DNA of 64,000 nt. Source: Escherichia coli (GTDB lineage Bacteria; Pseudomonadota; Gammaproteobacteria; Enterobacterales; Enterobacteriaceae). The stretch lies in assembly GCF_003334815.1 (NCBI RefSeq), contig NZ_QOWO01000010.1, one strand, 5' to 3'. The translations under genes and the position numbers were made by a program. Below the pieces are notes generated by a model. It was not told the DNA's origin. It did no database searches and was given only the letters and a program-made list of their open reading frames with translations. Below are positions 13,032 to 25,975 of this stretch, piece by piece; the first letter of the stretch is position 1; each line of letters opens with the position of its first letter.

Positions 13032-13979
13032 TCAGACAACTTCCTCACCGTAACGCATAGTGCTGGTACGGTTGCGCCCATCTTTCTTCGAGCGATACAG
13101 ACACGTATCGGCTTCGACCATCAATTTATTAAAGTCATCGGTCAGCGTTAGGTACGATGCGCGACCACTACCGACGCCAATACTTACCGTGAGATAAAGC
13201 GTTTTTTGTTGCCAGGTGAATGGTTGCAGTTCAACGCCTTTACGGATTTTTTCCGCCATTAGCAGACCATCGACAGGATTCACCGACGGCACTGCAACAG
13301 CAAATTCTTCGCCGCCCATTCGCGCCACCAGCCCCTTATCACCGACAATCTTCTGAATATGCCGGGCAAACACGCTTAACACTTTATCGCCACATTCATG
13401 TCCATAGTTATCGTTAATGCTTTTGAAATAGTCGATATCAAGCAGCATGACAGTCAGATGTTGTGTCTGTTTCAGCGATGGACTTTTCAGCGCCTCATAA
13501 AGACCGGACCGTGAGTAAACCTGAGTCAGAAAATCAAAGTCGGCTCGCAGCGCAACTTGCTTCATTAGCGAATTGATCGCTGCCACGCTAAAAGAAACCA
13601 TAATTGGGCATATCGCCATCGTGGCAATACCGAGACGTGCGGAGAACATTTGCGGAATGGAGAACGGCGAACCGACCGAGATATCAATCACCGAATTTGC
13701 CACCAGTACGATTTCCACCGCACCGGTGACAAAGGTCAACAGACATGTTACCTGCGGCGTATAGCGCACTGCACACCAGATTAATGCAGGCAGCGGGAAC
13801 GCCAGACTCCCCGCTCCGCCAATGACTACCGAGGCAATAACCGACACAATAAGCGCGATGGCGGGCATCATCTGTTCTGCTTTAAAGCGCGGCAGCACTC
13901 CAGGAATAGCCAACGTCAGCATACAAGGCACGATCAACACGCCCGTTGAGAATTGCTCACTGAACCAGTCCGCAAGCAA
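13032..13979 (-). CDS. dgcF: Membrane-anchored diguanylate cyclase (GGDEF domain)
   Basis: 315-aa ORF; hydrophobic N-terminus; GGEEF active-site motif (RMGGEEFAVAV) visible. Confidence 0.85.
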   Translation of the reverse strand: MLADWFSEQFSTGVLIVPCMLTLAIPGVLPRFKAEQMMPAIALIVSVIASVVIGGAGSLAFPLPALIWCAVRYTPQVTCLLTFVTGAVEIVLVANSVIDISVGSPFSIPQMFSARLGIATMAICPIMVSFSVAAINSLMKQVALRADFDFLTQVYSRSGLYEALKSPSLKQTQHLTVMLLDIDYFKSINDNYGHECGDKVLSVFARHIQKIVGDKGLVARMGGEEFAVAVPSVNPVDGLLMAEKIRKGVELQPFTWQQKTLYLTVSIGVGSGRASYLTLTDDFNKLMVEADTCLYRSKKDGRNRTSTMRYGEEVV

Positions 13980-14090
13980 AGGCCAGAAATCCAGACTATC
14001 AATACTGACCGAACCAAGATAGCATGTTCGCTGACAGCGGCGGCAAATAAAGGTACCCTGGGAATGCTATTTTGTCGTTTTCCGCAATTC

Positions 14091-14450
14091 TCATGGCTGA
14101 TTCATCTGTACAACCAGCCAGTGATAGATTACCGCCACGATATAACGTTGTTGTTCTTCGCTTAACGAAACACCCTGCGGAATGTTATGCCACTTAGCCA
14201 GACAACCGCGACAGCAGGTCGCGGTGGCGTGCTGAGCGATAAACACCGGATGCCCGCGCATGGGGGTTTGCTTACCGTCATTAGCCGGTAATGCCGGAGC
14301 AAGACGTTTAGCGACAAAATCCGCCGCATGTTGTTCGATGACTGGCGCGCCTTTCTCCAGGCAATACTGACGCTCTTTCATGCCCAGACGAAAGCGAGAG
14401 CGAAATTTTGAACGGGATAAACGCGCGAAGAGTGGATCGAGAGACTGCAT
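14091..14450 (-). CDS. yneG: Uncharacterised protein YneG
   Basis: 119-aa ORF; start codon overlaps glsB stop (TAATG). Confidence 0.8.
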   Translation of the reverse strand: MQSLDPLFARLSRSKFRSRFRLGMKERQYCLEKGAPVIEQHAADFVAKRLAPALPANDGKQTPMRGHPVFIAQHATATCCRGCLAKWHNIPQGVSLSEEQQRYIVAVIYHWLVVQMNQP

Positions 14451-15376
14451 TAATAAACCGAACGCCCTAACTGTTTCGTCAATTGTTCAAGGACGGCAAT
14501 ACCCGCAAGCGAGTTACCTGCATCATCCAGTTCCGGACTCCAGACAGCGATGGCCATTTCATGCGGAACAATCGCCACAATACCGCCACCAACGCCAGAT
14601 TTCGCCGGTAGCCCCACCCGCCAGGCAAACTCCCCCGCGTTCTGGTACATACCACTGGTCGCCATCAGCGCGTTAATTTGCCGCGCCTGCATTGGCGTCA
14701 CCACTGGTTCATCAATATGAATAGCTTTCCCCTGATTAGCCAGAAAGACAAACGTCCGGGCCAGCTCTACACAGCTCATTTTCAGAGCGCAGTAATGAAA
14801 GTAGTTTTGCAGAACGGTTGTCACGTCATGATGGAAATTGCCAAACGACTTCATCAGCCAGGCGATAGCCGCATTTCGCGCGGAATGTTCAAATTCGGAA
14901 CGCGCTACCACCGTATCGTAGGAAATATCAGACACACCGCTTAAGCCGCGCACGACTTCCAGCATACGTTGCCGTGGTGCGCTTAATCGCCCTTGCAACA
15001 TATCGCAGACCACCAGCGCACCGGCATTAATGAACGGATTACGCGGTATACCCTGCTCCATTTCCAGTTGCACTAAGGAATTGAACGGTGATCCAGACGG
15101 ATCTTTGCCGACGCGTTGCCAGATTTCCTCTTCGGAGTAATGACGCATGGCGACAACGAGACTCAGCACTTTGGAAATAGACTGAATGGAAAAACGTTCT
15201 TGCGCGTCTCCGGCCTGAAAAAGCTGTCCGTCAACGGTACAGATAGCAATCCCCAATCGGGAACCGTCTACTGTAGCCAGCGCCGGAATATAATCCGCGA
15301 CTTTACCCTGACCAATGAGCGGCCGCACTTGCCGCAAGATGTTTTCTAAAATTGCATTATCCATGGCGACTGCCAC
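14450..15376 (-). CDS. glsB: Glutaminase 2
   Basis: 308-aa ORF; recognised glutaminase sequence. Confidence 0.9.
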
Positions 15377-15439
15377 TTTCTACTCCTGGACCGCAGGTCT
15401 GAAAAGACCTGCGAGTATATCAGAGCTGAATATGTCGCG

Positions 15440-24932: not shown

Positions 24933-24941
24933 ATGACGGCG

Positions 24942-25038
24942 AAAAAAAACCGCCAGTAAACCGGCGGTGAATGCTTGCATGGATAGATTTGTGTTTTGCT
25001 TTTACGCTAACAGGCATTTTCCTGCACTGATAACGAAT
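24942..25038 (-). ncRNA. mgrR: PhoP-dependent Hfq-binding sRNA MgrR (about 97 nt, minus strand, convergent with mgtS)
   Basis: Minus-strand intrinsic terminator (stem CCGCCGGTTTACTGGCGG followed by T8) at the 3' end; PhoP box direct repeat about 35 bp upstream of the inferred 5' end; ends inferred, not mapped. Confidence 0.6.
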
Positions 25039-25072
25039 CGTTGACACAGTAGCATCAGTTTTCTCAATGAAT

Positions 25073-25090
25073 GTTAAACGGAGCTTAAAC
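25073..25090 (-). promoter_or_regulatory. PhoP box direct repeat (GTTTAA-gctcc-GTTTAA on minus strand) overlapping the dgcZ stop codon; likely mgrR promoter
   Basis: Direct repeat with 11-bp periodicity read in the sequence; approximate coordinates. Confidence 0.6.
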
Positions 25091-25975
25091 TCGGTTAATC
25101 ACATTTTGTTCGTCAATAAACATGCAGCGATTTCTTCCGGTTTGCTTACCCTCATACATTGCCCGGTCCGCTCTTCCAATGACCACATCCAGAGGCTCTT
25201 CAGGAAATGCGCGACTCACACCTGCTGTCACGGTAATGTTGATATGCCCTTCAGAATGTGTGATGGCATGGTTATCGACTAACTGGCAAATTCTGACACC
25301 TGCACGACATGCTTCTTCATCATTAGCCGCTTTGACAATAATGATAAATTCTTCGCCCCCGTAGCGATAAACCGTTTCGTAATCACGCGCCCAACTGGCT
25401 AAGTAAGTTGCCAGGGTGCGTAATACTACATCGCCGATTAAATGCCCGTAGGTATCATTAACCAATTTAAATCGGTCAATATCCAACAACATTAAATAAA
25501 GATTCAGAGGCTCAGCGTTGCGTAACTGATGATCAAAGGATTCATCAAGAACCCGACGACCCGGCAATCCCGTCAAAACATCCATATTGCTACGGATCGT
25601 CAGCAAATAAATTTTGTAATCGGTTAATGCCGCAGTAAAAGAAAGCAACCCCTCCTGAAAGGCGTCGAAATGCGCGTCCTGCCAGTGATTTTCAACAATA
25701 GCCAGCATTAATTCCCGACCACAGTTATGCATATGTTGATGGGCAGAATCCATTAGCCGAACGTAAGGTAATTCATCGTTATCGAGTGGCCCCAGATGAT
25801 CAATCCACCGACCAAACTGGCACAGTCCATAAGAATGGTTATCCGTTATTTCTGGCTTACTGGCATCTCTCGCGACCACGCTGTGAAACATACTCACCAG
25901 CCACTGGTAGTGGGCATCGATAGCCTTATTGAGATTTAACAAGATGGCATCAATTTCCGTTGTCTTCTTGATCAT
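25085..25975 (-). CDS. dgcZ: Zinc-regulated diguanylate cyclase DgcZ (N-terminal zinc-sensing domain plus GGDEF); ORF extends to 25981
   Basis: GGEEF motif (RYGGEEFIIIV) visible; recognised sequence. Confidence 0.9.
   Translation of the reverse strand: MIKKTTEIDAILLNLNKAIDAHYQWLVSMFHSVVARDASKPEITDNHSYGLCQFGRWIDHLGPLDNDELPYVRLMDSAHQHMHNCGRELMLAIVENHWQDAHFDAFQEGLLSFTAALTDYKIYLLTIRSNMDVLTGLPGRRVLDESFDHQLRNAEPLNLYLMLLDIDRFKLVNDTYGHLIGDVVLRTLATYLASWARDYETVYRYGGEEFIIIVKAANDEEACRAGVRICQLVDNHAITHSEGHINITVTAGVSRAFPEEPLDVVIGRADRAMYEGKQTGRNRCMFIDEQNVINRV

Follow-up and report, generated by a model that had tools for sequence, protein, structure and literature searches.

An intact dgcZ, a 5'-truncated dgcF and the PhoP box of the mgrR promoter in one stretch of the Escherichia coli chromosome

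A stretch of 64,000 nucleotides from Escherichia coli (contig NZ_QOWO01000010.1), referred to below as the window, carries two genes for GGDEF-domain proteins, dgcF (yneF) and dgcZ (ydeH), and a PhoP box that touches the 3' end of dgcZ. The arrangement raises the question whether two diguanylate cyclases with different sensory inputs are encoded here within 12 kb, one of them tied to Mg2+ and PhoPQ control through the box, as was proposed in a first-pass annotation of the window. According to the analysis reported here, the span holds three known elements of the E. coli chromosome that are functionally unrelated, namely dgcZ, a remnant of dgcF and the PhoP box of mgrR. A probability of about 0.9 was assigned to this reading as a whole, which includes that the box serves as activator site in the mgrR promoter, situated downstream of dgcZ and firing away from it, and that its overlap with dgcZ results from compaction and is not a regulatory tie of dgcZ to Mg2+.

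The annotated K-12-type open reading frame (ORF) of dgcF is located at 13032..13979 on the minus strand and encodes 315 amino acids from a TTG codon. The full extent of the remnant, determined by alignment to E. coli W, is 13032..14018 (minus strand) and corresponds to codons 145–472 of an ancestral protein of 472 amino acids; the reading frame is open to 14066, and dgcF-homologous sequence begins only at 14017. In the alignment to E. coli W a single clean gap of 498 bp was found at the 5' end of dgcF, with the deletion junction at 14017..14018 and no microhomology. A 901-bp query placed over this region corresponds to 1399 bp in most other E. coli genomes, whose longer allele is annotated as 'sensor domain-containing diguanylate cyclase'. 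Compared with full-length DgcF (472 amino acids; E. coli 55989, W, O157:H7 and Shigella), the copy in the window lacks 65 nt upstream of the ATG and residues 1–144, the coding loss amounting to 433 nt (codons 1–144 plus one base), and about three of approximately eight predicted hydrophobic segments were lost with them. The annotated TTG is the first in-frame TTG and corresponds to L158 of the full protein; no Shine–Dalgarno-like motif was found before it or before the next in-frame starts. In a strain with 100% identity, exactly 13032..14018 is annotated by the NCBI Prokaryotic Genome Annotation Pipeline (PGAP) as a pseudogene with 'missing N-terminus'.

The retained part of the protein contains a GGDEF domain (Pfam PF00990, residues 146–304 of the ORF, E = 2.7e-40) with GGEEF at residue 222, preceded by about 4–5 hydrophobic segments within the first 140 residues. 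Upon alignment with WspR, the signatures DxD...K..ND..GH..GD, R-x-GGEEF and K..GRN were found conserved, so that the active site (A-site) and the signature residues for Mg2+ and GTP binding are complete in the remnant; the RxxD inhibitory site (I-site) is absent. No curated model identified a named sensor domain, MASE-type or other, in the N-terminus of full-length DgcF: Pfam returned only GGDEF for the 315-residue remnant and the 472-residue protein, NCBIfam gave no match on residues 1–295 at E ≤ 10, and 120 DgcF homologues were labelled by Pfam with PF00990 only. The membrane domain of approximately 295 residues, with about eight hydrophobic segments, is conserved but unnamed. Accordingly, the hydrophobic N-terminus and the GGEEF motif ascribed to dgcF in the first-pass annotation are present, but the gene is not complete. 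For a complete gene, a promoter, start codon and ribosome-binding site together with the whole N-terminal input domain were required, and dgcF falls short of this; it is not a second cyclase with intact sensory input.

DgcF-like proteins of 472–482 amino acids were found in E. fergusonii, Citrobacter, Enterobacter and Lelliottia, with 72–88% identity over 97–100% of the membrane domain; since the long form occurs across these genera, it is ancestral and the short form derived. A 50-mer across the junction was searched in 5426 complete E. coli genomes, the set used for all genome counts below, and was recovered from 1216 of them (22%), among them MG1655 and W3110, which share the identical junction 50-mer with the window. 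The deleted segment is present in 4197. As the two numbers add up to nearly all genomes with the locus, the deletion is a common natural polymorphism and not a K-12 peculiarity, although it was described as specific to K-12 strains (PMC5635695). Natural carriers include human (clinical) isolates, pig and calf (livestock) isolates, and isolates from frog and seawater. Divergence among the carriers is below 1%, and within the 901-bp stretch the window differs by 1 base from the K-12 derivatives C600 and BM28.

Sarenko et al. (2017) reported a 5' deletion that disrupts dgcF in K-12 strains of E. coli, and found that chromosomally tagged DgcF stayed below immunoblot detection throughout growth in K-12 (PMC5635695). 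From the gene of a membrane-anchored cyclase, the deletion took away 144 codons at the 5' end together with the ATG, the ribosome-binding site and 65 promoter-proximal nucleotides; what is left is a GGDEF domain that looks catalytically intact, behind half a membrane domain and without a recognizable translation start. We infer that expression of the remnant is most likely absent or at best marginal, in line with the published K-12 immunoblots. In strain 3045 (NZ_CP103570.1) an IS1 element lies inside the remnant, annotated there as two fragments of a diguanylate cyclase, and dgcF has thus been disrupted a second time and independently. In two further E. coli proteins (P0008 and P0009, both single-member), DgcF residues 1 to about 303, at 98% identity, are joined to the HipA C-terminal kinase domain, probably through a large deletion that spans the lsr region and joins dgcF to hipA.

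The second gene, dgcZ, is located at 25085..25975 on the minus strand, is intact and encodes 296 amino acids from an ATG. DgcZ consists of a CZB domain (PF13682, residues 22–89, E = 8.2e-07) and a GGDEF domain (PF00990, residues 130–283, E = 7.3e-45), with GGEEF at residue 206 and RxxE at the I-site position 197–200. The protein scored 520 bits against the NCBIfam equivalog NF007380 (cut-off 256). It differs from the crystallized K-12 protein YdeH (PDB 4H54) only at T196A and at the engineered C52A of the crystal; PDB 3TVK and 3T9O are also essentially identical to it, 3T9O being identical for the CZB domain. The zinc ligands H22, C52, H79 and H83 (3His/1Cys) are all present, and no hydrophobic segment was predicted in DgcZ, which agrees with the soluble N-terminal sensor and the GGEEF motif noted earlier. 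Likewise, the A-site and the residues for Mg2+ and GTP binding are complete, and the N-terminal dimerizing and regulatory domain as well as the expression signals of the gene itself are intact. The I-site status of both DgcF and DgcZ is in agreement with Table 1 of PMC3484386. The single natural difference from K-12 DgcZ concerns codon 196 at 25388..25390, which encodes Ala here and Thr in the crystallized protein and adjoins R197 of the RxxE motif; the substitution is probably without consequence.

Synthesis of cyclic di-GMP (c-di-GMP) is known for the identical DgcZ protein (PMC8262984), and its regulation by zinc and hypochlorous acid (HOCl) has been described (PMC8262984, PMC8846402). Given the sequence identity established here, DgcZ would be a constitutive cytoplasmic dimer that is inhibited allosterically by zinc through the CZB domain. 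By the same literature, oxidation of C52 by HOCl would release the zinc and relieve the inhibition.

The region upstream of dgcZ (25976..26229, minus strand) contains two GGA motifs, one of them within the Shine–Dalgarno sequence, consistent with the known CsrA sites, and no PhoP-like box. The ATG is preceded by AAGGAG, and the upstream region matches that described for K-12; the locus shares with K-12 both GGA motifs of the 5' leader as well as the neighbors ydeI and mgrR/mgtS. CysB, CpxR and CsrA are the curated regulators of dgcZ, PhoP not being among them (PMC13131220), and the gene belongs to the CpxR iModulon (PMC7657598). From this literature, dgcZ would be transcribed from its own CpxR- and CysB-dependent promoter and repressed by CsrA. 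When up to one mismatch was allowed, no PhoP box was found upstream of dgcZ (25976..26300) or near dgcF, and no reported link of dgcZ or ydeH with PhoP or MgrR was found in the searchable full-text literature. With neither a box at its own promoter nor documented PhoP dependence, dgcZ does not qualify as a member of the PhoP regulon. A scan for sigma-70 consensus promoters over 24600..26300 returned none, which is uninformative because PhoP-dependent promoters have no -35 element and the spacer of the dgcZ promoter is non-standard.

The PhoP box is formed by the 17-mer AGTTTAAGCTCCGTTTA (25091..25075; box at 25075..25091, minus strand), which consists of the hexamers AGTTTA and CGTTTA separated by AGCTC. 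The perfect direct repeat GTTTA-N6-GTTTA at 25075..25090 (minus strand) occurs once in the window, with 0.10 occurrences expected, and at least one match was obtained in 9 of 100 shuffled sequences. As had been stated before, the box overlaps the 3' end of dgcZ: the distal half-site shares 7 nt with the gene (25085..25091), comprising its last codon, GTT for V296, and the stop codon TAA. A PhoP-activated promoter was defined by (T/G)GTTTA-N5-(T/G)GTTTA in place of the -35 element, upstream of a -10 hexamer and a transcript. This arrangement was found for mgrR, with the reservation that the first base of each hexamer (A and C, respectively) departs from the T/G consensus.

The transcript following the box was assigned as the small RNA (sRNA) MgrR. 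Rfam family RF01407 (STnc560) matched at 24860..25073 (minus strand) with 281 bits (gathering score 55); STnc560 is the Salmonella name for MgrR. An intrinsic terminator is located at 24941..24968 (minus strand), with a computed stem at 24968..24949 followed by a U-run, and the seed is conserved. According to the statement in PMC8313858 that cites Moon & Gottesman 2009, the PhoP motif occupies -52..-36 relative to the MgrR start. Applied to 25091..25075, this position yields a start at 25039 and a 98-nt RNA that ends in the U-run of the terminator, so that mgrR is placed at 24942..25039 (minus strand), and a -10-like TACTGT at 25051..25046 falls at -12..-7 of this start. The locus thus agrees with the PhoP-activated, Hfq-binding sRNA MgrR/STnc560 in covariance score, length and terminator, box position and the convergent mgtS, and no difference was found; the one noteworthy feature is the position of the distal half-site, which in E. 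coli falls within the 3' end of the upstream ORF. The overlap had been taken to link dgcZ to Mg2+ and PhoPQ control, a claim that fails, the box belonging to the mgrR promoter; the overlap is a physical one, and neither the present analysis nor the searchable literature gave any sign of a regulatory role. Phosphorylated PhoP (PhoP-P) on the box would drive transcription of the 98-nt MgrR away from dgcZ, the PhoP dependence being taken from literature on mgrR only.

The PhoP-dependent small-protein gene mgtS (yneM; 24771..24866, plus strand) is convergent with mgrR and is followed by mgtT (24866..24970, plus strand). The latter, a small ORF annotated in RefSeq, covers the 3' end and the terminator of mgrR on the opposite strand, so that mgtS/mgtT and mgrR share a convergent terminator region. 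Convergence and PhoPQ dependence of both mgrR and mgtS were reported previously (bioRxiv 10.1101/2021.06.30.450655).

For comparison across enterobacteria, one genome per species was scanned with an exact 27-nt stretch of the MgrR seed, resulting in 20 loci. Outside E. coli the strict perfect-box pattern matched only E. whittamii, the distal half-sites being imperfect elsewhere, and it was therefore replaced by a register-based comparison anchored on the proximal half-site. The proximal GTTTA was located 75–78 nt before the MgrR seed in all 19 loci with enough upstream sequence. Four loci keep the site without a dgcZ homologue in the recovered 1.1–6.4 kb upstream (Salmonella enterica arizonae, C. 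braakii, C. amalonaticus and a 'Raoultella' metagenome-assembled genome (MAG)), and in the twelve Citrobacter loci that do have a dgcZ homologue, the box is found 48–287 nt past the stop codon. In E. albertii the box begins 4 nt past the dgcZ stop, and the 7-nt overlap was seen only in E. coli and E. whittamii. The dgcZ-mgrR spacer would accordingly have shrunk in E. coli until GTT TAA of dgcZ formed the core of the distal half-site. Promoters of sRNA genes in the 3' end of an upstream ORF are known, e.g. for DapZ in dapB and MicL in cutC. The present locus resembles these in that promoter elements of the sRNA overlap a co-directional upstream coding sequence and one terminator is probably shared; it differs in that the ORF and the activator site have just 7 nt in common, and in that the body of mgrR is wholly intergenic and conserved independently of the upstream gene.

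Some variants of the junction were recorded in the course of this comparison. In E. albertii (about 8740..8775 of the recovered locus), three GTTTA-like half-sites with 11-bp spacing are found upstream of mgrR, the first being GTT TAA of dgcZ, and the extra half-site amounts to one more helical turn than in E. coli. In a GTDB 'E. coli' representative (NZ_JAATUR010000028.1, about 3600..3625 of the locus), the dgcZ stop codon is changed from TAA to TTA inside the PhoP box, and DgcZ is extended by 7 codons (303 amino acids) to a TGA in the mgrR promoter spacer. The promoter of the locus labelled Raoultella is identical to that of C. braakii. One exact match to the 27-nt seed, at the contig edge of a 'Caldithrix sp.' MAG (SMXE01000224.1, 43..69), is most likely due to enterobacterial contamination or a chimeric contig.

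Several observations weigh against the reading of dgcZ, the dgcF remnant and the mgrR box as unrelated items and were considered together with the alternatives they suggest. For dgcF, motility phenotypes of K-12 yneF deletions are reported in papers as cited in PMC3484386, which would presuppose either that the remnant is expressed to some extent or that the effect is polar or indirect; between yneG and the remnant no terminator-like site was found, so that the remnant may be transcribed by read-through; and the remnant ORF is still open, its protein being one residue different from DgcF of E. coli W. For the box, no terminator was found between the dgcZ stop and mgrR, from which it follows on sequence grounds that dgcZ transcription should have to cross the PhoP-bound site, with interference or co-transcription as possible results. 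The alternative for dgcF is that the truncated gene works, i.e. that read-through from sad-glsB-yneG, upstream on the same strand, and translation from the TTG or an internal ATG would give a shortened, membrane-anchored and active cyclase minus its signal input. The retained catalytic residues would permit this. In addition, the DgcF orthologue of Shigella flexneri makes c-di-GMP when expressed, and active products were obtained from Shigella diguanylate cyclase 'pseudogenes' with early nonsense mutations (PMC11327459). On the other hand, the K-12 strains in which tagged DgcF was undetectable carry the same junction as the window, none of the early in-frame starts is preceded by a Shine–Dalgarno-like sequence, and loss of about three of the roughly eight hydrophobic segments likely disturbs topology and dimerization; moreover, PGAP calls the gene a pseudogene, and at least one strain has an additional IS1 insertion in it. 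A working remnant is therefore considered unlikely. Still less can be said for dgcF and dgcZ as a functional or evolutionary pair, that is, a duplicated or co-regulated c-di-GMP module, a reading to which practically no weight is given. Both proteins have a GGDEF domain of the GGEEF type, and the genes are on the same strand 12.9 kb apart, but the two GGDEF domains share only 31% identity, a value typical for unrelated members of the family, their N-terminal domains show no relationship, and about a dozen unrelated genes intervene. For the 12 cyclases, 19 GGDEF-containing genes or 29 GGDEF/EAL genes of E. coli K-12 (PMC5635695, PMC11327459), 0.37, 0.95 and 2.3 pairs, respectively, are expected within 12.9 kb on 4.64 Mb; the proximity is what is expected by chance (P about 0.3–0.6). 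By the identity value and this expectation, a recent duplication or module was ruled out. Degenerate active sites, which the first-pass annotation had named as grounds for rejecting its claim, were also ruled out, both proteins being canonical in D-I-D-x-F-K-x-x-N-D-x-x-G-H-x-x-G-D, R-x-GGEEF and K-x-x-G-R-N. Of its two cyclases with different inputs within 12 kb, both ORFs are thus confirmed, with correct gene names and domain types, but the input of dgcF is truncated and the spacing is unremarkable.

The remaining alternative holds that the box at the 3' end of dgcZ does tie dgcZ output to Mg2+ and PhoPQ, either by PhoP-P acting as a roadblock to, or colliding with, RNA polymerase finishing dgcZ, or by read-through carrying MgrR, in which case Cpx-driven transcription of dgcZ would feed MgrR via its 3' untranslated region (UTR). 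The last 7 nt of dgcZ do lie within the box. In E. coli the sole terminator-like site 3' of dgcZ on its strand is that of mgrR, and this is equally so in the Citrobacter locus with the 287-nt spacer; the dgcZ-mgrR junction is, furthermore, conserved at ≥95% identity in 5415 of the E. coli genomes. Against coupling stand the dgcZ promoter region without a PhoP box, the curated regulators and the literature without PhoP or MgrR, the confinement of the overlap to E. coli and E. whittamii with boxes 48–287 nt beyond dgcZ in Citrobacter, the persistence of the proximal half-site without dgcZ in the recovered upstream sequence, and the Escherichia lineage that lost the dgcZ stop inside the box and kept the arrangement. 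The restricted overlap, the independence of the half-site from dgcZ and the lost stop argue against selection for a coupled function, and such coupling, in either form, is regarded as very unlikely. Because the only terminator 3' of dgcZ is that of mgrR, it probably ends dgcZ transcripts as well, and dgcZ mRNA probably contains the MgrR sequence. It is a further step, and in our estimate quite an unlikely one, to a partly shared transcription unit in which CpxR-driven transcripts end at the mgrR terminator with MgrR as 3' UTR. Under the same low odds, such a 3' UTR could be processed to a functional sRNA independently of PhoP, and conversely, at low Mg2+, PhoP-P over the dgcZ stop could keep dgcZ transcripts from being completed.

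The surrounding region is E. coli chromosome throughout: positions 12800..16800 of the window were matched in 5421 genomes, several at 100% identity, and dgcF and dgcZ are named, long-known E. coli genes. In the annotated record of the identical strain the gene order is uxaB, dgcF, yneG, glsB, sad, ptrR, yneK, ydeA, marC and marRAB, continuing with eamA, ydeE, mgtS, mgtT, dgcZ and ydeI; the approximately 11 kb between the dgcF remnant and dgcZ thus contain yneG to mgtT of this series. The G+C content is 0.40–0.43 over yneK (17500..19000) and 0.38 around ydeI (26000..27000), with about 0.50 in the surroundings, and these low-G+C stretches could stem from older horizontal acquisition. The gene eamA (22363..23283, minus strand) is an intact ORF of 306 amino acids here and is annotated as frameshifted in the near-identical strain 4/2-1, which accounts for the 1-bp coordinate offset between the window and the locus of that strain.

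The value of these results is mainly corrective, since dgcZ, the truncated dgcF and the mgrR promoter are all already known and nothing in the span is new. In genomes with the K-12 junction, dgcF should be read as a 5'-deleted remnant and not as a sensor cyclase, and the PhoP box at the end of dgcZ as the promoter of mgrR. Were c-di-GMP quantified in deletion strains at low Mg2+, as suggested in the first-pass annotation, the outcome would probably be no change for dgcF and no PhoP dependence for dgcZ. Beyond this, only a possible contribution of dgcZ read-through to MgrR levels is of modest interest. If true, a shared unit or interference by PhoP would connect envelope stress and c-di-GMP signalling to the Mg2+ response.

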